Assembly (NCBI GenBank): GCA_028715175.1
Contig: JAQUSJ010000001.1
Location: 472,368 to 536,367, forward strand
Direction: 5' to 3'
DNA from: Candidatus Daviesbacteria bacterium
GTDB taxonomy: Bacteria > Patescibacteriota > Microgenomatia > Daviesbacterales > UBA10151
Length of the DNA stretch: 64,000 bases
Shown: piece after piece, positions 1 to 55,036 of the stretch
How positions within the stretch are numbered: the stretch's first letter is position 1
How the letters are laid out: each line of letters starts with the position of its first letter
Made by a program: the position numbers and the translations under genes
The notes under the pieces: model-generated
Databases searched by the model: none
Told to the model about the DNA's origin: nothing
What the model saw: only the letters and a program-made list of their open reading frames with translations

Positions 1-743
1 ATCCTATAGCTATAGCCTCCAAGGCGTCCCCCTGGAGGCTGCCGGATTACAGGGTAGAGTTAAAGAATATTAACAGCTTTAGATTTATAGTAGCAGCAAT
101 TGAGTATGAAATTAAACGGCAAATTGAAGCTTTGGAAAAGAGAGAGAAACTTACTCAGGAAACCAGAGGTTGGAATGAGGACAAAAAGTGTACGTTTTTG
201 CAAAGAAGCAAAGAAGAAGCTCATGATTACCGCTATTTTCCCGAACCGGACCTGCCGGAACTCCGAATTGAAGAGTCTAGAGTCAAAAGCCTGGAGTCAA
301 GTTTGCCAGAATTGCCTTGGGATAAACTAAAAAGATTTGCGGAGGAATATGGTATTAGTAAAAATGATGCCCAGATTCTTTCTGAGACAAAAGAACTGGC
401 CGAGTTTTTTGAAAGTGCTTTAGAACATGGTAAAAAACATGGTGTTTCTATCAAAGAAGTGGCAAATTATATAGTTAACAGAAAGCCCGACATAAGTTCT
501 GTACTGCCAACACAGATTATAGAGGAATTAAAGGGTAAAAAAGTGGGAATAATAGAGAGCGAGAAAGAACTTGAAAAACTCGCTGAACAAGCTGTCAAAG
601 AAAATGCGAACGCAGTTCTGGATTATAAGAAAGGTAAAGAGGCAGCGCTGCAAGTTTTAATAGGCGGAGTAATGAAATTATCTTTAGGTAAAGCAGACAT
701 TGCTAAATTGAAGCCGATTCTGGAAAAATTACTTAAATCTTAA
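1..743 (+). CDS. gatB: Asp-tRNA(Asn)/Glu-tRNA(Gln) amidotransferase subunit B, C-terminal part (5' end lies upstream of window)
   Basis: Frame 3 is open from nt 3 with no stop; GatB signature YRYFPEPDLP and C-terminal GatB/YqeY helical domain; EYEIKRQIEALEK matches GatB. Confidence 0.85.
   Translation, partial: PIAIASKASPWRLPDYRVELKNINSFRFIVAAIEYEIKRQIEALEKREKLTQETRGWNEDKKCTFLQRSKEEAHDYRYFPEPDLPELRIEESRVKSLESSLPELPWDKLKRFAEEYGISKNDAQILSETKELAEFFESALEHGKKHGVSIKEVANYIVNRKPDISSVLPTQIIEELKGKKVGIIESEKELEKLAEQAVKENANAVLDYKKGKEAALQVLIGGVMKLSLGKADIAKLKPILEKLLKS
14..40. repeat. 27-bp GC-rich hairpin element, family A copy 1 (reverse orientation), in-frame inside gatB (encodes ASKASPWRL)
   Basis: agcctccaaggcgtccccctggaggct; stem AGCCTCCA/TGGAGGCT; reverse complement of the core seen at 4343, 39792 etc. 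Confidence 0.7.
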
Positions 744-3700: not shown

Positions 3701-4344
3701 AGTTGCCTCTTGAACAATTGCTGGTTTTCGAAAAAGATCTTTTGGGTTTTTACCTGCATGAACCCCCTTTTCTTGCAGCACTTCAAAAATTAACCAGGTT
3801 TGTATCTATCAAACTTTCCGATTTGAGCGAGGAAAGTATCGGGAAAACTTTGAAACTGGGAGGAGTTATTGTTGCGGTTAAAAAAGTATTAACCAAAAAA
3901 GCAAGCAAGGAAATGGCATTTGTTAAAATTTCCGATGGGATTTTTAGTTTAGAAGTGGTAGTTTTTCCCAAAATATTTGAAACAAGCAAAGAATTTTTGG
4001 TTTCGGATCAGGTTGTTTTAATCTCCGGACGTGTTGAGAAAAGAGAAGAGGAGCTTTCTTTAATTGTTGAAAAAATTGCCCCGTTTGATCCGGAGAGCGC
4101 GGGTGATCTGCAGCAAAATAGCTTAATGGTTGAGATTTATATTCCGGCAGGGGCAGATATATCGGTATTACAAAATATAAACAGAACTCTGCGGGGATTT
4201 CCGGGAGGCACGCCGGTTGCGTTATTTTTAAATAGCGACAAGGGTGTAAGACGTATGGATTTGCCGTTTTCTGTTGATCCGCAACCTTTACTCGAGGAAA
4301 AAGTTAAAGAGATTCTAGGCAAAGAGGCTTTTAAAATAGTCTAG
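781..4344 (+). CDS. dnaE: DNA polymerase III alpha subunit
   Basis: 1187 aa; N-terminal PHP domain (FVHLHGHTQYSLLDG), polymerase core and C-terminal OB fold; typical DnaE length. Confidence 0.95.
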   Translation: MTITKTIMPKFVHLHGHTQYSLLDGLSKVPKLIKTVKDLGMESIAITDHGVMYGAIEFYKACREAGVKPIVGVEMYVAKRSHKDKEGKLDSEPFHLTVLAKNYQGYLNLMKLTTIAHCDGYYYRPRVDKALLKEFHEGLIALSGCPAGEFVRSLNTRDPKKAEEVIKNYLSIFGEGNFYLELQSHPYQQSLDEAVDDTVKKDLQEILDIQTQTWSTVKQLSKKIGIPIVGTNDYHYVAKEDAQAQDALLCVQTGKLLSDVVRLRMIDTPDYFVKSPVEMAENFKDIPEALENTVKIAKLIDLEIPLGVARFPVFETPNKASSMEYLREITYQKAAEKLELTKEIKERLDFELSVIEKKKYADYFLVVADFMDWAHQRGIITNTRGSAAASMVLYCLGVTNLNPLGYLLPFERFLTVYRPSLPDIDVDIADDRRDEVIDYVMKKYGKDRVAHIVTFGTMMGRAAIRDVGRVMGMSYSDVDRIAKLVPPPHQGFHKPLGLAVKEVPDLQNLYRSDPQIKKLLDLAARIEGTVRHASVHAAGIVIAPDEITNFTPLQKESSGERLVSQYDMFAVEDAGLVKMDLLGIRNLSILGKAVEFVKENRGISIDLDKIPLDYKKAFELLAKGETMGVFQLEGSGMTRYVTELKPTSITDIQAMVALYRPGPLGVIPEYIARKHDPKKVKFFDPRMKDYTEASLGLLVYQDDVLLTAINIAGYSWEEADKFRKAMGKKIPSEMARQKDKFIEGCIKNGMRAEKAEELFAMIAPFAAYGFNKAHAASYAMIAYQTAYMKASFPVEFMAAVMTAESGDSDKIASAIEECKRLQIVVLPPDVNKSGIGFSLEKLKELSQADLERSLSVGESGIKQGIRFGLSAVKNVGISAIESIILAREDGEFVSLADLCSRVDTRLVNRKTLESLIKAGALDHLGSRAGQLLVLDSCLEQSHKQSRARLSGQVLLFDSEEDQGVFAVKLPDVAELPLEQLLVFEKDLLGFYLHEPPFLAALQKLTRFVSIKLSDLSEESIGKTLKLGGVIVAVKKVLTKKASKEMAFVKISDGIFSLEVVVFPKIFETSKEFLVSDQVVLISGRVEKREEELSLIVEKIAPFDPESAGDLQQNSLMVEIYIPAGADISVLQNINRTLRGFPGGTPVALFLNSDKGVRRMDLPFSVDPQPLLEEKVKEILGKEAFKIV

Positions 4345-4370
4345 CCTCCAGGGGGACGCCTTGCAAGGCT
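4343..4370. repeat. family A hairpin element copy 2, overlapping the dnaE stop codon
   Basis: agcctccagggggacgccttgcaaggct; dnaE TAG at 4342-4344. Confidence 0.7.
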
Positions 4371-4418
4371 AAGCGGGTGCAGGTTGCCAGCAGGCTTAGA
4401 TTATGTTAGTATTCCTTA

Positions 4419-4752: not shown

Positions 4753-5112
4753 ATGTCCAATACCGATATCGGAAATAAAGGAGAAGAACTGGCGTGCAAG
4801 TATCTTAAGAAACTGGGGTATAGAATTCTTGAAAGGAACTTTCGGATCAGGGGTGGGGAAATAGATATTGTAGCCAAAGATAGGGATACTTTGGTGTTTG
4901 CGGAGGTAAAAACCCGATACTCTCATGAGTTTGGTTTACCTTGTGAGTCCATGACGCCATGGAAAATTCGCTCACTTTTAAAAACTGCCAGATTTTATAT
5001 CCAAAAAATCAGCTGGGGTAATAGGGAATACAGGTTGGATTTTGTGGGGGTGGATTTTGCTGAGTCCGGGGATAATCCCAAAATAGAACTAATTAAGAAT
5101 ATCATCTTATAG
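4753..5112 (+). CDS. YraN/UPF0102 family endonuclease
   Basis: 119 aa; GGEIDIVAKD..LVFAEVKTR motif typical of UPF0102; common neighbour of rplS/rnhB. Confidence 0.7.
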   Translation: MSNTDIGNKGEELACKYLKKLGYRILERNFRIRGGEIDIVAKDRDTLVFAEVKTRYSHEFGLPCESMTPWKIRSLLKTARFYIQKISWGNREYRLDFVGVDFAESGDNPKIELIKNIIL

Positions 5113-5117
5113 TATTA

Positions 5118-5145
5118 CGCTCCAGGGAAACGCCTTGCGAAGCTG
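5118..5145. repeat. family A hairpin element copy 3 (degenerate) between convergent genes
   Basis: cgctccagggaaacgccttgcgaagctg, directly after the yraN stop (5110-5112). Confidence 0.6.
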
Positions 5146-11274: not shown

Positions 11275-12767
11275 TTGAAGTTCTGCCAATTAGATTACTA
11301 ACAGATGAGGATGCGCCGATTTTCGGCAGCTTAAATTTGAATTTGGCAAAGCTGTTTCGGTCCGGAGTTCCTGTCGGGTCCGGGTTAGTTGTCACGCCGC
11401 CGCAGTTTAAACTCAAAACAGTTTTGGAAAATTATGATTTTGGCACCAAGGAGGTTTTTCAACAGTCTCTGACCCTGGTTAAAAGAGAAATACGTTCAAT
11501 TCCTGTCCCGGATGTTTTAATTAACGGTGTCAACCCAACCCACAGAAATTTTTTGCTTAATGGAGAAAAGATTAGCTCAATTAAAAATCTTTGGTTGAAA
11601 TTATTATCAATTTGGATAGAGCAAATTGAAAACAAGTTATGGAATAACGGATTTTATCCGGGTATTACCAGGGACTTGGATCCGCAGATTGTGATTTTTG
11701 TGAAAAAAATGGAATCCTCAGGAAACGCTTATTATGACCAGTTGCAGGATGATGTAGAAGTTCAAGTAAAAACAGGGAAACTATATCCGAACGATCTCAA
11801 AAAGATTATAGAAATAGTCCAGATAGCCGATAAAAAACTTTTTATCCCTCACGAATATGAATGGGTACTGGATGGAGGGGTAAAATTAGTTGGTCTAAAA
11901 CAATATACTCCTTCTGTTACCATTGAGCCTACCCCTATAGTTGCAGGCTCCAGGGGAACGCCTTGCGAGGCTAGAAACGCCGTTAAAGTATTTCTCGACT
12001 TATCCGCCGGATTGACCTTTGAAAAAGAAGTTGACGGGATATATATCGCATCGGAAAAAATATTTGACCTGGATAACCCTTCGGAATCATTTGAAAATTT
12101 GGTTTCCAGATTAGTAGAAGGAGCTATGACTTTTCCAAACTCCCCTATTTTTTTAAAATTGGCAGATAAGTCAGAAGGTATGGGTAAAGTGCGCGGAACC
12201 TTGCGCTTGCTTCACCAGAAAAGTCTATTTGATCCGTTAGCGAAAGTTTTGGATTTTGCCCGACATAAAAAAGGCTTAACAAATGTTCATATAGTTGTGC
12301 CGTTTGTGAGGGGTGTAACTGAACTGCTGAAAATGAAAAGGGAGCTGGCTGTCCGGAAGCTCTCCAGGAAAAATTCCCTGCAGCTTTGGATGGAAGTGGC
12401 CGTGCCGGAGAATATTGTTAATCTGGAAGATTATCTGGTTGCCGGCATTGATGGGGTGGTTTTAAACCTGGATGAGCTTGTATCTTACTTAAATGGTGTT
12501 GATTGTTCGGAGGAAGATTTAGTATTTTACAAGAGTGAAGTTTCGGGGTTACTTAAGTTTCTGGAAGATGGGATTAAGCTTTTGCATAAGTCAAAAGTCC
12601 CTTTCATGGTCTATGGCAGCTTGGTTCTTACCCCAAAAGTGCTGGAATTTTTGGTGGAAAAAGGGGTTTATGGAGTGGTAGTGGAAAAATATGAAGCTCA
12701 CTCAGCTAAGGATTTACTACATCAAGCAGAAAAAAGGATGATTCTAAAAAGAGTGGATAGAATATGA
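11271..12767 (+). CDS. PEP-utilising enzyme family protein (PPDK_N-like ATP-grasp plus C-terminal TIM-barrel domain, no central phosphohistidine domain)
   Basis: N-terminal FGSLNLNLAKLFRSGVPVGSGLVVT resembles G.K.aNL..l...GvpVP.GF; C-terminal VVLNLDELVSYL resembles fSIGTNDLTQ; no GGxTSHAAI motif. Confidence 0.45.
   Translation: MIEVLPIRLLTDEDAPIFGSLNLNLAKLFRSGVPVGSGLVVTPPQFKLKTVLENYDFGTKEVFQQSLTLVKREIRSIPVPDVLINGVNPTHRNFLLNGEKISSIKNLWLKLLSIWIEQIENKLWNNGFYPGITRDLDPQIVIFVKKMESSGNAYYDQLQDDVEVQVKTGKLYPNDLKKIIEIVQIADKKLFIPHEYEWVLDGGVKLVGLKQYTPSVTIEPTPIVAGSRGTPCEARNAVKVFLDLSAGLTFEKEVDGIYIASEKIFDLDNPSESFENLVSRLVEGAMTFPNSPIFLKLADKSEGMGKVRGTLRLLHQKSLFDPLAKVLDFARHKKGLTNVHIVVPFVRGVTELLKMKRELAVRKLSRKNSLQLWMEVAVPENIVNLEDYLVAGIDGVVLNLDELVSYLNGVDCSEEDLVFYKSEVSGLLKFLEDGIKLLHKSKVPFMVYGSLVLTPKVLEFLVEKGVYGVVVEKYEAHSAKDLLHQAEKRMILKRVDRI
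11946..11972. repeat. family A hairpin element copy 4, in-frame inside the PEP-enzyme-like CDS (encodes GSRGTPCEA)
   Basis: ggctccaggggaacgccttgcgaggct. Confidence 0.65.
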
Positions 12768-34284: not shown

Positions 34285-34347
34285 TGTCATTCTGAGGCGA
34301 AGCCGAAGAATATAATTATATCCTTCACTAATCGCTCAGGATGACAA
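34285..34347. repeat. 63-bp element with terminal inverted repeats, family B copy 1, immediately upstream of the uvrA start
   Basis: tgtcattctgag...ctcaggatgacaa; TIR tgtcattctgag/ctcaggatgaca (1 mismatch). Confidence 0.7.
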
Positions 34348-34351
34348 TAAT

Positions 34352-37300
34352 ATGGCTATAGACAAGATAGTTATCAAAGGAGCTAGAGAACATAACCTTA
34401 AAAACGTTGACCTGGAAATTCCCAAAAACAAGCTGGTAGTTTTAACAGGAATTTCCGGTTCAGGCAAGTCTTCTTTGGCTTTTGATACCCTTTATGCCGA
34501 AGGTCAAAGAAGGTATGTAGAATCACTTTCTTCCTATGCCAGGCAGTTTTTGGGGGTAATGGATAAACCTGATGTGGATTTGATTGAAGGGCTTTCTCCG
34601 GCCATTTCTATTGACCAAAAAGGTGTTTCACATAATCCCCGTTCAACTGTCGGTACGACCACCGAAATCTATGATTATTTGCGGCTGCTTTTTGCCCGGG
34701 TTGGCCATCCACATTGTCCTGTCTGCGGCAGAGAAGTTGCCAAGATGAGCGTGGAACAGATAGTGGAGAAAGTAATAAGTGACAAGAAACAAGTAACAAG
34801 TAAGGGGAAAAGAATTATGATTTTGGCGCCGGTGGTTAAAGATAGGAAAGGGGAATATTCCCAGCTTTTTGAAGACTTTAGAAAAAAAGGATTTTCTAAA
34901 GTTAGAGTTGATGGACAAGTAAGAGATCTTGATGACTCGCCTCGCTCCGCGGGCGGAGCGGGAGATCTGGTGTTAATTAAAACTAACAAACACACGATTG
35001 ATTTGGTAGTAGACAGATTAGTGTTAGATAAAACTGTCATTCTGAGCGAAGCGAAGAATATAAAGTTATATCCTTCGGCTACGCCTCAGGATGACAAGAG
35101 TAAAAATAGTGTTCATCTTTCGACAAGCTCAGGACAAGAGAACAATATGTACTCAAGATTGTCACAAAGTATTGAGACAGCGCTTAAATTAGGCGAAGGA
35201 TCAGTGATTATCTCGCAAGTTCTGGATGCTTCTTTAGAATTTCCACAGTACCCTAAAAAAATGGATGACCGTCTTTATTCGGAAAGGTTTGCCTGTCCGT
35301 TGGACAGCATTTCTCTTCCGGAAGTTGAGCCAAGACTTTTATCTTTCAATTCGCCTCATGGAGCTTGTTCCGTCTGCGCCGGACTGGGTAGTCTTTTGGA
35401 GATAGATGAGACAGCGGTTTTAAATCCAATTCTTTCTATTGCGGAAGGCGGAATACTTCCCTGGTCAAGACTTGCTTCAAGTGATACCTGGTTTAGCAGG
35501 TTGATTGAAGCTGTTGGGAAAAAATACGGTTTTGATTTAAATACCAGACTGGGAAATTTAACAACTGAGGCTAAAAAGATTTTGCTTTTCGGCAGCGGAC
35601 AAGATCAATTTAAAGTGGAAGGTAGAAACAGACAAGGCAGATGGACCCATTTTTATTCGGAGTTTCAGGGCTTGGTAGCTTATCTTAAGCAAAGATATCA
35701 GGAATCGGAATCAGACTTTGTTAAGGCCGAAATTGAAAAATATATGGTGAAGGAAGTTTGTCCGAAATGTAAGGGTGCAAGATTAAAGGATGAGGCTCTT
35801 TCAATCACCATAGACGGATTAAATATTGCTGAAGTCACCAGCCAATCAATAGTGCAAGTGCTGGAATGGATATCACACCTCGGAGGTGTGATATCGGAAC
35901 GCGAAGCGCAAATTGCCACACCGATCGTAAAGGAAATTATATTACGCTTAAGTTTTTTAATTGATGTTGGTTTGGATTATTTAACGCTTGACCGTCCTGC
36001 TTCGACTTTGGCCGGGGGGGAATCACAACGGATCAGGCTGGCTTCTCAAATTGGTTCAGGGCTCTCCGGGGTACTGTATGTCTTAGATGAACCATCCATT
36101 GGTTTGCACCAGCGGGATAACCGTCGCTTGATTGAGACTTTAAAAAAGCTGAGAGATTTGGGTAATACGGTTATTGTTAATGAACATGATGCTGAAACAA
36201 TGGAGGCTGCGGATTTGCTCATAGAGATTGGTCCGGGAGCTGGTGAACACGGAGGCAACATTATCTTTATAGGAACTCCGGAGCAAATGAAAAAAAATCC
36301 GAATTCTTTGACAGGGCAATATTTATCCGGCAAGAAAAAAGTGACTCCGATATTTCATCGGAGTCATCCTGATCCGGCTTTACCGGAGAAGGATCTCTCG
36401 AATAACAGGGCTTTAACCGTATTTGGAGCCACAGAGCACAATTTAAAAAATATCAACGTTTCCTTCCCTTTGGGGCAATTTATTGCTGTGACAGGTGTTT
36501 CCGGTTCAGGTAAATCAACTTTAATTCATGATATTTTGTACAAAGCTTTAGCGCAAAAAATATACAGGTCAAGAGAAAAATCCGGAGGACACAAAGGGAT
36601 GGAAGGAGTAGAAAATATAGATAAAGTTGTTTTGGTGGATCAGTCGCCGATTGGCCGTACCCCCCGCAGCAATCCAGCCACTTATACCGGCGCATTCACT
36701 TTTATCAGAGATTTATTTGCACAGTCTCCTGAAGCGAAAATAAGGGGATATGGACCGGGCAGGTTTTCATTCAATGTCAAAGGAGGAAGATGTGAGGTTT
36801 GCGAAGGCGAAGGTACTCTTAAAATCGAAATGCAATTTTTGCCGGATGTTTATGTTACTTGTGAGTCGTGTAACGGCGCAAGGTATAACAGGGAGGCTTT
36901 GGAAATTAATTTTAAGGATAAAAACATAGCGGAAGTGTTGGATATGACGGTAGAAGAGGCCTTGAGGTTTTTTGAGAATATTCCTCATATTAAAAACAAG
37001 CTGCAGGTTTTATTTGATGTCGGGCTTGGCTATATTAAACTGGGGCAACCGGCCCCCACACTGTCAGGAGGAGAGGCTCAACGGATTAAACTGTCTTCGG
37101 AGCTCTCCAAACGGCCCACAGGGCACACCATGTATATTTTAGATGAACCAACCACCGGACTCCATTTTGCAGACATTGAAAGACTCTTGACGATTTTGCG
37201 AAAACTGGTAAATTACGGCAATACTGTGATCATTATTGAGCACAATTTAGATGTCATTAAAAATACGGATTGGATTGTAGACCTTGGGCCGGAGGGCGGA

Positions 37301-37396
37301 GACAAAGGCGGTAAAGTTGTAGCGGAAGGTACCCCCCGGCAGCTTGCCAAAATAAAATCTTCCTACACAGGCCAGTATTTAGCTAGGATAATTTAA
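34352..37396 (+). CDS. uvrA: excinuclease ABC subunit A
   Basis: 1014 aa; two ABC ATPase modules ([20 protein letters not shown]), LSGGE signatures, zinc-finger cysteines; carries in-frame repeat insertions. Confidence 0.95.
34937..34963. repeat. 27-bp GC-rich palindromic in-frame insertion in uvrA (encodes SPRSAGGAG)
   Basis: tcgcctcgctccgcgggcggagcggga; stem CGCTCCGC/GCGGAGCG; flanked by AGATCT on both sides; 9 aa extra relative to my recollection of E. coli UvrA. Confidence 0.5.
35035..35097. repeat. family B 63-bp TIR element copy 2, inserted in-frame inside uvrA (encodes [21 protein letters not shown])
   Basis: tgtcattctgagcgaagcgaagaatataaagttatatccttcggctacgcctcaggatgacaa; about 85 percent identical to copy 1; 63 bp = 21 codons. 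Confidence 0.7.
35107..35134. repeat. partial TIR-like repeat adjacent to B2 (ctttcgacaagctcaggacaagag)
   Basis: Repeats ctcagga(tga)caagag of the B2 right end; shares an 18-mer with 7850-7868. Confidence 0.45.
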
Positions 37397-39312: not shown

Positions 39313-40628
39313 GTTGGCTCCGCTTTAAATCCGAAATTCCGCGAAGACCAGGTGTCTATATATTTAAAGATAAAGACGGGAAGATTTTATATGTCGGAAA
39401 GGCTGTTGATCTTTATCAGCGCGTTACTTCATACGGTGTCAACCTAACCCACACCAGGGGTGGGATACGCATACACCGTGATAATACTAAAGTAGCAACT
39501 CTTGTTGAACATATCGCCAAAGTGGAAACAATTACAGTTGAATCGGAGCTTGAAGCTTTGATCCTGGAAGCCAATCTTATTAAAAAATATTTGCCTCCGT
39601 TTAATGTCAGACTCACAGATGACAAGGATTATTTGTACATTGCAGTCAGTAAAGAAGCTTTCCCAAAAATTGTGACTGCCAGGAAAAAAGATCTCCAGAT
39701 AATGAAAAAACATTGGGGTCCATTCCCTTCAAGCAGAACTGTCAGGGAAACATTAAAATCATTAAGAAAAGTCTTCCCCTGGTGCGCTGCAGCTTCGCAA
39801 GGGGACGCCTTGCGAAGCAAAACACGATTCCGTCCATGTTTTTATTATCACCTGAAACTATGTCCAGGAGCGTGCATTGGCTTAATAAGTAAAGAAGAAT
39901 ACAACAAAATTATTAACAGGTTTTCCAAATTTATGGACGGAAAAAAGGAGCAACTGATTACCGAACTGACTGCCGAAATGAAGCAAGCAGGGCAAAAACA
40001 AAAATTTGAGGAAGCAGCTAAGATCAAAAAAACAATCGAGGGTATTTTCTATTTAACCCAAACCAACAGGACCGGGCTTTATTTAGAAAATCCTAATTTT
40101 TTACAGGATGAAGGAAGCCTTGCCCTTGAGCAATTAAAAAAAGATTTAAACCTGGGGAAACTACCTGAAAGGATAGAAGGGTATGATATTTCAAATATCC
40201 AGGGCTATGAGGCCACCGGTTCAATGGTTGTTTTAACTAAAGGGGAAATTGATAAATCGCAGTACAGGAAATTTAAGATTAGCTCGTCAGCCGGCGGATT
40301 CAGTCGTCCAAACGATGTGGCTATGATACGTGAGGTGCTGCGGCGCAGATTAAAGCATACCGAGTGGCCTTTGCCTGATTTAATATTAGTAGACGGCGGT
40401 AGAGGACAAGCTAGAGCTGTTCAGGTAACAATTCAACAATTTAGCAATGCAGCAATTCCCGTATTTGGTCTGGCAAAACGGATGGAATGGCTTTATCCGC
40501 CTAAAGGTGAAATTCTAAAGCTTCCAAGAAAAAGTCTTTCTTTGAAATTGTTGCAAAAGCTGCGTGATGAGGCTCACAGGTTTGCCATTAGCTATCACAG
40601 GAAACTTCGTGATAGGATTATAGTATAA
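39309..40628 (+). CDS. uvrC: excinuclease ABC subunit C, short form lacking the C-terminal (HhH)2 domain
   Basis: 439 aa; N-terminal GIY-YIG (GVYIFKDKDGKILYVGKA, ELEALILEANLIKKY), UvrBC motif (KFEEAAKIKKTIEGI), RNase H-like endonuclease domain (EGYDISN); no HhH at the C-terminus. Confidence 0.8.
   Translation: MSWLRFKSEIPRRPGVYIFKDKDGKILYVGKAVDLYQRVTSYGVNLTHTRGGIRIHRDNTKVATLVEHIAKVETITVESELEALILEANLIKKYLPPFNVRLTDDKDYLYIAVSKEAFPKIVTARKKDLQIMKKHWGPFPSSRTVRETLKSLRKVFPWCAAASQGDALRSKTRFRPCFYYHLKLCPGACIGLISKEEYNKIINRFSKFMDGKKEQLITELTAEMKQAGQKQKFEEAAKIKKTIEGIFYLTQTNRTGLYLENPNFLQDEGSLALEQLKKDLNLGKLPERIEGYDISNIQGYEATGSMVVLTKGEIDKSQYRKFKISSSAGGFSRPNDVAMIREVLRRRLKHTEWPLPDLILVDGGRGQARAVQVTIQQFSNAAIPVFGLAKRMEWLYPPKGEILKLPRKSLSLKLLQKLRDEAHRFAISYHRKLRDRIIV
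39792..39818. repeat. family A hairpin element copy 5, a perfect 11-bp stem, in-frame inside uvrC (encodes ASQGDALRS)
   Basis: gcttcgcaagg-ggacg-ccttgcgaagc. Confidence 0.75.
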
Positions 40629-46540: not shown

Positions 46541-46589
46541 TGGATAATACACTCCCCGCCAGAGGCGGGGCAAGAGTCCATAGATGCTG

Positions 46590-46661
46590 TGAGCCGGGTG
46601 GGATTCGAACCCACGGCCAATGGATTAAGAGTCCATTGCTCTACCGCTGAGCTACCGGCCC
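46590..46661 (-). tRNA. tRNA-Lys (anticodon CTT)
   Basis: GGGCCGGTAGCTCAGCGGTAGAGCAATGGACTCTTAATCCATTGGCCGTGGGTTCGAATCCCACCCGGCTCA; anticodon loop CTCTTAA. Confidence 0.8.
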
Positions 46662-46728
46662 ATTGTTGTATATTCTAACAAATTGAGAGATCCTTGCGCC
46701 ACCGCTAAAGCTACGGCGGCACGCGGTC

Positions 46729-47461: not shown

Positions 47462-47504
47462 GTTATAGTTTTTGTGGTATAATAAGCATACTGCTGAAAT
47501 GGAA

Positions 47505-47526
47505 CCCCGCCATGGCGGGGTTTTTT
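47505..47526 (+). terminator. rho-independent terminator (ccccgc-catg-gcgggg + T6)
   Basis: GC stem then tttttt; 44 nt after the upstream stop. Confidence 0.7.
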
Positions 47527-51310: not shown

Positions 51311-52273
51311 ATGAAAATTGGGTTTATTGGACTGGGCAGAATGGGCAAAAATATGGTTTTGCATCTTTTGGAAAAAGGGGTCGAGGTAGTAGCTTGGAAC
51401 AGGTCTCCTGAGCCTCGCGAAGAATTAAAAAAGGAAGCTAATACGCTTGCAAGGGGACGCCTTGCGAGGCTAACGGCTGCAGAAGACTTGGATGGGTTGA
51501 TTGGTAAACTTGATGCCCCTAGAATCATATGGTTAATGGTGACTGCTGGACCGGCAGTTGATGAACTTCTAGCCCAACTTGCCAATAAGTTAAATCCAGG
51601 GGATTTGGTAATTGATGGCGGTAATTCTTTCTACAAAGATACGATTAGAAGGGCAAATGAGTTAAAAAGCCATGGTATCCATTTTATGGATGCGGGTACC
51701 TCGGGCGGTATAGAAGGAGCAAGAAACGGTGCATGTATTATGGTGGGGGGTTCACAGGAGGATTTTAAGAGGGTTGAACCTGTTTTAAAGGTGGCTGCCG
51801 TCCCTGAAGGCTATGCTCATCTGGGTCCAGCGGGTAGCGGACACTTTGCCAAAACCGTTCATAATGGTATTGAATATGGCATGATGGAAGCAATTGGAGA
51901 AGGAGCAGCCATCCTGAAATATTCACCGTTTAACTATGACCTGCGGGAAGTATTTAGAATTTATAATAACGGATCAATCATTGAATCACGTCTGGTAGGC
52001 TGGTCTTTGGCAGAATTTAGGAGTGATCCTGATTTATCCAATATATCCTCTGTAATTGGATCAGGTGGAGGTGCTGGAAAAATCAAGGGGGAAGCACACT
52101 GGACACTAAAGTTGGCACAAAAGCTGGGGATAGATACACCGGTAATTGAGGCTTCAGTCAAAGTCAGAGATAACTCAGACAAAGATAAAGAAAATTCTCC
52201 AAACAGTTTCCGTAACAAAGTAGTTGCTGCCATGCGTTGGCAATTCGGCCGCCATCCTGTTAAAAAATCTTAA
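51311..52273 (+). CDS. gnd: 6-phosphogluconate dehydrogenase (decarboxylating), short-form Gnd
   Basis: 320 aa; Rossmann IGFIGLGRMGKNM; 6PGDH catalytic region; contains an in-frame family A element. Confidence 0.8.
   Translation: MKIGFIGLGRMGKNMVLHLLEKGVEVVAWNRSPEPREELKKEANTLARGRLARLTAAEDLDGLIGKLDAPRIIWLMVTAGPAVDELLAQLANKLNPGDLVIDGGNSFYKDTIRRANELKSHGIHFMDAGTSGGIEGARNGACIMVGGSQEDFKRVEPVLKVAAVPEGYAHLGPAGSGHFAKTVHNGIEYGMMEAIGEGAAILKYSPFNYDLREVFRIYNNGSIIESRLVGWSLAEFRSDPDLSNISSVIGSGGGAGKIKGEAHWTLKLAQKLGIDTPVIEASVKVRDNSDKDKENSPNSFRNKVVAAMRWQFGRHPVKKS
51445..51471. repeat. family A hairpin element copy 6, in-frame inside gnd (encodes LARGRLARL)
   Basis: gcttgcaaggggacgccttgcgaggct. Confidence 0.7.
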
Positions 52274-53585: not shown

Positions 53586-53613
53586 CGCACCCAAGGGGAC
53601 GCCTTGCGAGGCT
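53586..53613. repeat. family A hairpin element copy 7, between the zwf stop and the IMPase start
   Basis: cgcacccaaggggacgccttgcgaggct; overlaps the zwf stop codon at 53612-53614. Confidence 0.65.
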
Positions 53614-55036
53614 AAATTCTGCAAAAATCCATTGAAGGTTCAAGCCAAATCCTTCCGTCTTTTTCTATTAACTCATCAGCTTCTTTTGGCCCCCAGGACC
53701 CGGGTTCGTAAATTGCGGGTTTCCCGCGGACTGCAATTAAGGGATCTATAAAGGCCCATTGTGCTTCCACTTCCTCCGCATCATTAAAGAATGTCTGATC
53801 GCCTCTGATTGTATCGATCAGCAAACGTTCATACGGGTCGGGAATCTTGTGCGTATATGGATTGGGTCTGTAGCAATACTGCATATATTCCGGTTGCAAT
53901 TTTGCATCATAGCCCGGTACTTTGGTTAAAATCTTAAGCACAATTCCCTCATTCGGCTGAATACGGTAGATTAAAACATTTGGTTCATCCCCGCTATCTG
54001 CGCTTTTGAATAGTCTGTTAACATGATTTTTAAAGACAATAGAGATTTCCGTCACTGTTTGCTTTAACTTTTTCCCGGCTCTGATATAAATCGGGACATC
54101 CTTAAAACGTTCGTTGTTAATATAAGTTTTTAAGGCATAGAATGTATCTGTATTGGACTGCAGAGAAACATTTTCTTCTTTTCGATAACCCTCATATTGA
54201 CCGTAAACTACCTTGTCAGGCATAGGTATCAGGTTTTTGAGAATCTTGATCCTCTCTTTGGTGACTGCCTCATTAGAGAATTCACTTGGTGCATCCATGG
54301 CGGCAAAAGCCAGCATCTGCAGTTGATGATTTTGACCAACATCTTTTAACGCCCCTACCTGATCATAATACCCGCCCCGTTTGCCAATGCCGAAATCCTC
54401 GGCAGCAGCAATTTGGATGTGGTCAATATAATCTTTATTGATAAGGGGTTCAAAAATATCATTGGCAAATCTAAAGGTAAGAATATTTTGCAGAGTTTCC
54501 TTGCCTAAATAATGATCCAGCCGGAAAATTTGATCCTCTGTAAAATATTTTAAAAGCAGCTTGTTTAGCTTCTTAGCTGAGGGAAGATTACAACCAATAG
54601 GTTTTTCAATCATTAACCTGATCCAACCCTTGTTTTGTTTGTTCAAATTATTTTTTTGTAAATTCTCGAAAATTTGATGATAGAGTTCAGGGTAGGTAGC
54701 CAGATAAAAAATTCTATTGCCATGTTTTAAGATATTACTTAGCTTTTCATATAAATTTTGGTCTTGAATTTGACCGCTTAGATATGTAAATTTCTTACAA
54801 AGTCTTTTAAAAACTTCTTCTTTAATTTCATGTTTATGATGGATATTTTCCAGATGCAAAACGGTGTGAACATAATGCTTTAATTCCTCATCAGACATTT
54901 CTTTTCTGGCAATACCGACAATAGTCATATCAGATGGCAAAAGGTCTTTTTCCTCCATATCATAAAGAGCCGGAATCAATTTGATCTGGGCGAGATTTCC
55001 GGTAATGCCAAAAATAATTAAGGTAAAAGAGTCCAT
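53612..55036 (-). CDS. zwf: glucose-6-phosphate 1-dehydrogenase
   Basis: 474 aa; N-terminal GDLA-type NADP site; RLDHYLGKE signature. Confidence 0.9.
   Translation of the reverse strand: MDSFTLIIFGITGNLAQIKLIPALYDMEEKDLLPSDMTIVGIARKEMSDEELKHYVHTVLHLENIHHKHEIKEEVFKRLCKKFTYLSGQIQDQNLYEKLSNILKHGNRIFYLATYPELYHQIFENLQKNNLNKQNKGWIRLMIEKPIGCNLPSAKKLNKLLLKYFTEDQIFRLDHYLGKETLQNILTFRFANDIFEPLINKDYIDHIQIAAAEDFGIGKRGGYYDQVGALKDVGQNHQLQMLAFAAMDAPSEFSNEAVTKERIKILKNLIPMPDKVVYGQYEGYRKEENVSLQSNTDTFYALKTYINNERFKDVPIYIRAGKKLKQTVTEISIVFKNHVNRLFKSADSGDEPNVLIYRIQPNEGIVLKILTKVPGYDAKLQPEYMQYCYRPNPYTHKIPDPYERLLIDTIRGDQTFFNDAEEVEAQWAFIDPLIAVRGKPAIYEPGSWGPKEADELIEKDGRIWLEPSMDFCRI

Follow-up and report, generated by a model that had tools for sequence, protein, structure and literature searches.

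A 27-nucleotide GC-rich palindrome in frame within uvrA of a Candidatus Daviesbacteria genome belongs to a dispersed family of hairpin elements

The uvrA gene of a Candidatus Daviesbacteria genome, a member of the candidate phyla radiation (CPR/Patescibacteria), contains a short GC-rich palindrome that leaves its reading frame intact. This raises the question of whether the insert is an inherited variable loop of UvrA, the product of a mutational process that generates palindromes or a copy of a mobile element. The gene lies in a 64,000-nt stretch of assembly GCA_028715175.1 (contig JAQUSJ010000001.1, positions 472,368-536,367 of the forward strand), which we refer to as the window. The original prediction described a 27-bp palindrome inserted in frame and bordered on both sides by AGATCT, and proposed a general process of 27-bp palindrome insertion. 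We find instead that the palindrome is a member of a specific, sequence-conserved family of dispersed elements and not a local oddity, with precise insertion, recurrence, dispersal and nesting, and no duplication. We consider it probable that window positions 34936-34962 hold a copy of a selfish mini-element, tiny and non-autonomous, namely a single-stranded DNA (ssDNA) hairpin that is mobilised in trans and filtered by selection.

The predicted palindrome is real. Positions 34937-34963 of the window read tcgcctcgctccgcgggcggagcggga, with two arms (CGCTCCGC/GCGGAGCG) that are 100% complementary and separated by 2 nt. As had been claimed, the open reading frame (ORF) at 34352-37396 reads SPRSAGGAG here, and a ribosome would translate the insert as Ser-Pro-Arg-Ser-Ala-Gly-Gly-Ala-Gly. 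The element is the strongest GC island in a window of ~40% GC, and its 18-nt palindrome was seen in 0 of 100 dinucleotide-preserving shuffles. The hairpin consists of an 8-bp stem and a 2-bp extension with a bulge, with predicted energies of -9 kcal/mol as DNA and -15.4 kcal/mol as RNA, and it is an imperfect palindrome within the 20-40 nt range typical of repetitive extragenic palindromic (REP) sequences. An Rfam search of the element gave no score near any gathering threshold, and no further copy was found in the 64-kb window at up to 3 mismatches for the 18-nt core or up to 7 for the 27-mer.

The boundaries of the unit are defined by comparing filled and empty alleles. The base preceding TCGCC is C at 33 of 34 distinct sites, while the base following ...GCGGG varies, and in the two closest filled/empty pairs this variable last base is the third base of the empty codon. 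The window reads gat gaC TCG...GCG GGa gat ctg where the empty locus L001 reads gat gaa gat ctg, and L092 reads gaC..GGt where the empty L126 has gat. Similarly, the typA gene of the window itself is empty (gag) where L010 reads gaC..GGa. Because the variable base is the third codon base of the empty allele and the C is constant, the unit is 34936-34962; the predicted length of 27 nt is thus retained, and the predicted position moves one base to the left. Insertion occurs after the second position of a GAN codon (GAA, GAG or GAT), which is GAA (Glu) in the window.

To place the insert among its orthologues, we aligned 120 Daviesbacteria UvrA homologues with 74-100% identity, one of which (P0001) is 100% identical to the window protein. 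Other UvrA proteins are shorter here by about nine residues, as originally stated for Escherichia coli UvrA: Mycobacterium tuberculosis UvrA (3ZQJ) lacks exactly 9 residues where the insert lies, and 112 of the 120 homologues have no residues between DLx(D/E) and DLVLIKT. The eight carriers contain SPRSAGGAG (P0001 and P0084), SPRSARGAG (P0065), SPRGEAG (P0021, P0050 and P0086), SSGGAG (P0106) or a nested form of 23 aa (P0035). The closest orthologue of the window protein, P0002 from locus L001 (89% amino acid identity), represents a seamless empty site. Empty sites without a footprint are also present in L125, L126 and L127, the nearest neighbours of three other carriers. In a neighbor-joining (NJ) tree the carriers are scattered, and the nearest neighbour of each is a non-carrier at a distance of 0.056-0.155. 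Distances between carriers are 0.16-0.24, except for P0021 and P0086 at 0.08. These sequence comparisons indicate that at least eight separate lineages have been hit at a single uvrA codon.

An alternative to repeated insertion is that the segment is an ancestral, vertically inherited variable loop, or that an insert allele has spread among species by homologous recombination. The region does correspond to a surface loop, and two carriers that share a 21-nt form of the insert, P0021 and P0086, are fairly close relatives. However, Fitch parsimony requires eight changes (gains), against 33 precise losses under one ancestral gain, and partial remnants are absent apart from one. This one remnant, agt tcg ggt gga gca ggt in the uvrA gene of L093, has drifted toward AT and illustrates how an old, decayed copy looks. 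The insert is also far less diverged than its surroundings, since its DNA is identical at 24-26 of 26 positions between carriers and the flanking 90 nt are just 64-84% identical. Carrier pairs are no more alike in their flanks than carrier/non-carrier pairs are; this speaks against recombination as the route by which the filled allele spread, and we reject that route on this ground. We therefore disfavour this alternative and judge it very improbable. An assembly, chimera or adapter artefact, to which only the odd composition of the insert points, is less credible still and deserves practically no weight: independent assemblies from NCBI, ENA and JGI, including the complete genome CP066688.1, share this insert at this codon, and it is always in frame.

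The distribution of the element extends well beyond uvrA. Scanning 185,579 species-representative genomes with the pattern TCGCCTCGCTCC-N(0-30)-GGCGGAGCGGG yielded 87 stretches, with 58 matches in loci of at most 55% GC and 31 in loci of at least 61% GC; we read the high-GC matches, which have long and unrelated spacers, as chance. The exact 26-mer is found inside long ORFs of Daviesbacteria/Microgenomates genomes, namely atpA (L005, L072 and L052), gyrA (L031, L051 and L079), aspS (L073 and L090), pheT (L009), typA (L010), recR (L028) and uvrA (L034). A metagenome scan contributed 28 more stretches, 23 of which are in the SPRSAGGAG phase, and added M1 aminopeptidase, MurD, class II ribonucleotide reductase (RNR), Pth, RnpA and a second PheT site as hosts. 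UvrC, DnaJ and RadA were identified as further hosts by eye among the metagenome copies, and Pfam confirmed ten host proteins. Overall, the element is present at ~20 further housekeeping-gene sites across Daviesbacteria/Microgenomates and related metagenome contigs, and atpA, gyrA and aspS each have one and the same site reused in different species. A scan of viral contigs returned just two matches, both with long gaps, and added nothing useful. Our literature searches found no earlier description of this element in CPR/Patescibacteria.

Most copies are intragenic and lie within long ORFs, and the reading frame is kept in uvrA, gyrA, atpA, aspS, pheT, recR, murD, RNR and other hosts. Orientation and phase are strongly biased toward the SPRSAGGAG reading, which is nearly always in sense. 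The two antisense sites (PAPPAERGE) are in a glycosyltransferase gene (L042/L109) and at L032/L101, and a small number of copies adopt the LASLRGRSG phase or fall within short ORFs. On reading its sequence, the element has no stop codon in any of its six frames, so the bias reflects either a benign SPRSAGGAG peptide or a directional mechanism. Two side observations concern these loci. The glycosyltransferase gene with the antisense 27-mer also contains a second, partial GC island, GGGCGGGCGAAGCGGGCC (GGRSGP), at L042 3854-3871. Several metagenome-assembled genomes (MAGs) from binchicken co-assemblies (L005, L010, L028, L031, L033, L034, L051 and L052) are titled "uncultured Gammaproteobacteria" and carry Daviesbacteria-type genes; the record titles look wrong, as in CAYHYM01, which holds the uvrA of P0035.

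Members of the family differ in length and can be nested. A 21-nt sibling, CTCGCCTCGCGGCGAAGCGGG, exists alongside the 27-mer, and at L091 and L094 the uvrA codon that takes the 27-mer elsewhere is filled by the 21-mer TCGCCTCGCGGCGAAGCGGG (SPRGEAG). In L033 a 21-mer lies inside a 27-mer, and in the uvrA of L003 a 27-mer contains a 21-mer that itself contains another 21 nt, for a total of 69 nt in frame; the atpA of L052 has a similar nested variant. In L092 the central GG is replaced by CC, so that the loop is flipped and the arms are kept. Nesting and expansion of this kind, a loop flip as by intrastrand switching of palindromes and the presence of at least three unrelated palindrome families in the window, some within ORFs, are compatible with a generic mutational process that makes 27-bp GC palindromes de novo at many places, for example by template switching or hairpin-primed synthesis. 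Such a process, however, cannot give an identical 26-mer at ~20 unrelated sites in many species, a 21-nt sibling shares the same uvrA site, and lengths found in other phyla are not fixed at 27. Selection in coding DNA would leave lengths that are multiples of three; these provide no evidence for a process that generates 27 bp. The identical copies largely refute this explanation, which we consider highly unlikely, and a specific family takes the place of the general process originally proposed.

Other parts of the original prediction fared differently. GC palindromes of ~27 nt that form a separate set (family A) are indeed present in the window and differ in sequence, and genes of this lineage harbour short GC palindromes of several kinds. 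The orthologue alignment and the wider search for copies show that the segment is not ancestral and that copies exist in other genes and genomes, with none more in the window. AGATCT, on the other hand, does not lie immediately on both sides. The left copy (34924-34929) is 7 nt away, and the right copy (34963-34968) shares one base, the last, with the interval first proposed. Both are native codons, for Arg-Asp-Leu (aga GAT CTt) and Gly-Asp-Leu (gga GAT CTg), and simple arithmetic gives ~16 AGATCT expected in the window by chance, against 15 observed. The insert in L002, L003, L034, L092 and L121 has no AGATCT around it, and flanks in other genomes read, for example, agg gat ttg and ggg gat ttg. 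We thus reject it as a target or a duplication.

The same arms with other loops, in elements of 23-29 nt, are found in Melainabacteria, Bacteroidota, Ignavibacteriota, Planctomycetota, Spechtbacteria and Saccharibacteria. Outside the CPR, the element often forms the tip of some longer palindrome or is located within another repeat, and the apex positions suggest that it prefers hairpin tips. Cases of either kind include L023, L054, L058, L062, L084 and L085, as well as L047, L053, L077 and L081 from Melainabacteria (...CCTCGCAATGAC type). In three Bacteroidota MAGs (L020 6845-6891, L024 5583-5609 and L060 363-408), the hairpin arms lie between GGTTCG and AATCC. These sites resemble the 3' ends of tRNAs (T arm and acceptor) and have intact tRNA genes at a distance of 70-290 nt; disrupted copies of tRNAs or remnants of att sites may account for them.

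We evaluated target choice at the 34 distinct sites, none of which has a target-site duplication. The base at -1 is always a purine and that at -2 is G at 24 of the 34 sites; a motif search recovered purines at -1 and -2, a preference for purines also at +2 and +3 and nothing else. As a gauge of replication-strand bias, local GC skew is positive at 27 copies and negative at 12, a count confounded by gene orientation, and antisense copies are on the C-rich strand. Genes for a Y1 transposase resembling REP-associated tyrosine transposases (RAYT) adjoin uvrA at five loci from related genomes (Table 1). The protein matches PF01797, and its top NCBIfam model is the REP-associated tyrosine transposase NF047646 at 55 bits, where the cut-off is 80. 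At L002 5494-5593, next to this gene, a metagenome contig has a scaffolding gap, a stretch of N bordered on either side by duplicated sequence.

The account that we favour, a trans-mobilised hairpin mini-element, would work as follows. The hairpin would spread by copy-out/copy-in, most plausibly as ssDNA, and a trans-acting HUH/Y1-type enzyme (RAYT/IS200-like) may handle it. Insertion would favour purine-purine steps and hairpin apices. Purifying selection would then retain those copies that keep the frame, give a small, flexible SPRSAGGAG peptide and sit in tolerant surface loops. Matches to PDB entries 3FPN and 4DFC, which represent the UvrA interaction domain, place the insert in the UvrB-interaction domain of UvrA. 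An AlphaFold2 (AF2) model of UvrA built on 64 homologues predicts residues 195-214 as coil with a predicted local distance difference test (pLDDT) score below 50, between strands 189-192 and 215-225. The effect of the insert on UvrA is probably near neutral, with the gene intact and the extra loop harmless.

Several observations weigh against this account. The nucleotide target is weak (~2 bits) and cannot alone account for all uvrA events at one codon, and nested insertions sit after ...GCTC(C), which breaks the purine rule. Codon selection for a hydrophilic loop is expected to give the same purine pattern, and the flank preferences and the bias in orientation and phase could arise wholly from selection at the protein level. 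The hairpin is no more stable than composition-matched shuffles (z ~-1.3). Representative genomes contain 1-3 exact-arm matches each, counts that are lower bounds, and the 64-kb window contains one, unlike classical REPs. Relationships among carriers come from a simple NJ tree of a single protein, UvrA, and not from a species tree. With respect to the enzyme, another hairpin, ACACCTYTCAGGTGT, borders the RAYT-like gene on either side, as checked in L001-L003. Both this gene and this hairpin are absent from the window, where a transglutaminase gene directly follows uvrA, and no Y1 gene was found near the copies at ~100 other element-bearing loci. The RAYT-like gene beside uvrA is consequently unsupported as the mobilising enzyme.

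The recurrence at single codons invites a different interpretation, in which the element is a homing-like or functionally selected cassette rather than a near-neutral parasite, maintained and regained at particular codons for a useful hairpin in DNA or mRNA or for the SPRSAGGAG loop, or directed to exact sites by a system guided by sequence or structure. At least eight independent events are located at one uvrA codon, and no SPRSAGGAG-like peptide occurs elsewhere in the 120 UvrA proteins, although a nearby hypervariable site takes many other inserts and tolerates up to ~60 aa. The reuse of single sites in atpA, gyrA and aspS across species, the near invariance of the insert DNA as its flanks diverge and the presence of the same arms in several phyla are all compatible with a cassette. 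Many hosts also function in DNA repair or replication (uvrA, uvrC, recR, radA, gyrA and RNR), echoing the bias of intragenic REPs (PMC3733652). However, our search of the 34 sites and the element-bearing loci found no guide, enzyme or conserved target motif. The 112 orthologues without the insert manage without it, and the decaying relic in L093, the insert's place in a coil predicted with low confidence and hosts with unrelated functions (peptidase, MurD, Pth and RnpA) likewise speak against a selected role. We regard a cassette as rather unlikely, and retain the selfish, trans-mobilised hairpin as our preferred explanation.

A bolder reading is fairly improbable, and we hold it only tentatively. 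The 27-mer and its 21-nt sibling might constitute a site-selective "nano-element", the smallest mobile DNA known to re-insert at the same codon (uvrA, atpA, gyrA and aspS) in separate species. This would involve an unrecognised form of targeting, whether structure- or guide-directed or by homing-like copying, and the element or its machinery would be common to CPR, Melainabacteria, Bacteroidota, Ignavibacteriota and Planctomycetota. Reinsertion at the same codon and arms shared across phyla are the aspects most worth pursuing; for uvrA itself, the outcome is ordinary. Together with nesting, they pose a mechanistic problem, namely what enzyme mobilises a hairpin of 27 nt and by what means the site is selected. 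More broadly, the family extends to the CPR the phenomenon of in-frame selfish palindromes in essential proteins, known from Rickettsia and from intragenic REPs, and 27 nt (9 aa) is near the lower size limit for mobile DNA. Such inserts create lineage-specific indels in marker genes (gyrA, atpA, aminoacyl-tRNA synthetase genes and uvrA), where GC islands of this kind could pass for errors.

The window contains other palindromes, the coordinates of which are included in Table 1. A second, unrelated element of ~62 nt also lies in frame in uvrA. In other Daviesbacteria, its position in UvrA, after LDK, is occupied by a wide variety of inserts, the longest of ~60 aa, and residues 233-262 of the AF2 model have pLDDT below 50. 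Four family A palindromes are located in long ORFs, including uvrC (39790), and the UvrC of L003 has a similar SQGLALRT segment; the other three, which fall in no ORF other than short ones (24-109 aa), may be intergenic. Two more GC hairpins are found at 46554-46570 and 47503-47522. The hairpin CCCCGCCAGAGGCGGGG adjoins a tRNA-like repeat at 46588-46662, and the hairpin AACCCCGCCATGGCGGGGTT, followed by TTTT and located just upstream of typA, is terminator-like.

Table 1. Positions of the uvrA insert, its parts and other features, in window coordinates unless a locus is named.
Feature	Position	Strand	Basis or reading
uvrA, 1014 aa, otherwise intact	34352..37396	+	ORF; matches UvrA homologues
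27-nt GC-rich hairpin element CTCGCCTCGCTCCGCGGGCGGAGCGGG, the family consensus (C + 26-mer)	34936..34962	+	uvrA frame: (D)SPRSAGGA(G)
Left stem arm CGCTCCGC	34943..34950	+	Inverted repeat, 100% complementary
Right stem arm GCGGAGCG	34953..34960	+	Complementary to left arm
ga, first two bases of the split native Glu/Asp codon	34934..34935	+	Filled versus empty comparison
a, displaced third base of the split codon and third base of the last Gly codon	34963	+	Filled versus empty comparison
~62-nt palindromic element (TGTCATTCTGAG...CTCAGGATGACA), unrelated, in frame in uvrA	35035..35096	+	
Copy of the ~62-nt palindromic element, just upstream of the uvrA start	34285-34346		
Family A GC palindrome (about GCYTSCAAGGGGACGCCTTGCRAGGC)	22-46	-	
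Family A GC palindrome	4341-4371		
Family A GC palindrome	5112-5144		
Family A GC palindrome	11943-11973		
Family A GC palindrome	39790-39816		
Family A GC palindrome	51444-51472		
Family A GC palindrome	53586-53614		
RAYT-like Y1 transposase gene adjoining uvrA	L001 5974-6624		
RAYT-like Y1 transposase gene adjoining uvrA	L002 4795-5451		
RAYT-like Y1 transposase gene adjoining uvrA	L003 12953-13684		
RAYT-like Y1 transposase gene adjoining uvrA	L091 1-559		
RAYT-like Y1 transposase gene adjoining uvrA	L127 3185-3355		

Intragenic REPs provide one point of comparison. Di Nocera et al. (2013) described GTAG- and CGTC-tagged REPs as single hairpins of 20-40 nt, a form of miniature mobile DNA, some of which lie wholly inside ORFs (PMC3733652). 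They are notable in replication and repair genes, including uvrA of Thioalkalivibrio, both uvrA genes of Opitutus terrae and uvrB, and those in recB of Xanthomonas occupy about the same site (PMC3733652). The element resembles them as a short hairpin found inside ORFs, including uvrA. Unlike REPs, it carries neither a GTAG nor a CGTC tag at its ends (CTCGCC...GCGGG) or in its reverse complement, and it is low-copy and almost wholly intragenic, whereas REPs are high-copy and mainly extragenic. The RAYT-like gene is flanked by ACACCTYTCAGGTGT and not by the hairpin of the element, in contrast to a REPtron. A CPR host genome of ~40% GC and the repeated reuse of one codon also set the element apart from described REPs.

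Rickettsia palindromic elements (RPEs) are located in frame in unrelated housekeeping genes, are ~150 bp long and encode an extra peptide that is compatible with the protein fold (PMC10969869). Judged by its sequence, the element would likewise be palindromic selfish DNA that sits in frame in unrelated housekeeping ORFs. At 27 nt and 9 aa it is ~5 times smaller than RPEs, which span ~100-150 bp and ~30-50 aa, and it occurs in a different lineage with no sequence relation to them. We are not aware of any description of RPEs repeatedly hitting the same codon in different species. Cyanobacteria have small dispersed repeats (SDRs), for which PMC5861425 cites Elhai et al. (2008, Genome Res 18:1484). 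These repeats, SDR1-8, were reportedly proposed as the smallest mobile elements, with an enzyme that is said not to be known. By that description they are nesting hairpins of 21-27 nt, which resembles the 27- and 21-nt forms of the element and its nesting in L003, L033 and L052. They are said, however, to be confined to Nostocaceae, to lie mostly in intergenic regions or in other repeats and to differ in sequence, whereas the element resides in CPR. To our knowledge, in-frame colonisation of conserved proteins by these repeats has not been reported.

The GC clusters of yeast and other fungal mitochondria, such as GC42, are GC-rich hairpins in an AT-rich genome that show presence/absence polymorphism, and their mechanism is not known (PMC4478555). 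The element is similarly a GC hairpin in an AT-rich genome with a stem that is more conserved than its loop. GC clusters differ in being organellar and mostly intergenic and in having an AG target duplication, which the element lacks. [quoted passage not shown] Compared with IS200/IS605, the element has only a purine-purine preference in place of a fixed 5' target of 4-5 nt, and a single hairpin in place of left and right subterminal hairpins. Set beside the derived palindrome-associated transposable elements (PATEs), which insert 3' of a fixed tetra- or pentanucleotide without duplication and have subterminal hairpins at both ends, it shows seamless empty sites and no duplication, along with the purine-purine preference and the single hairpin. 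What it shares with IS200/IS605-type Y1 (HUH) and RAYT-REP systems is a hairpin substrate, insertion without duplication, seamless empty sites and a strand or orientation bias, and RAYT-like genes are present in these genomes, as they are in RAYT-REP systems.

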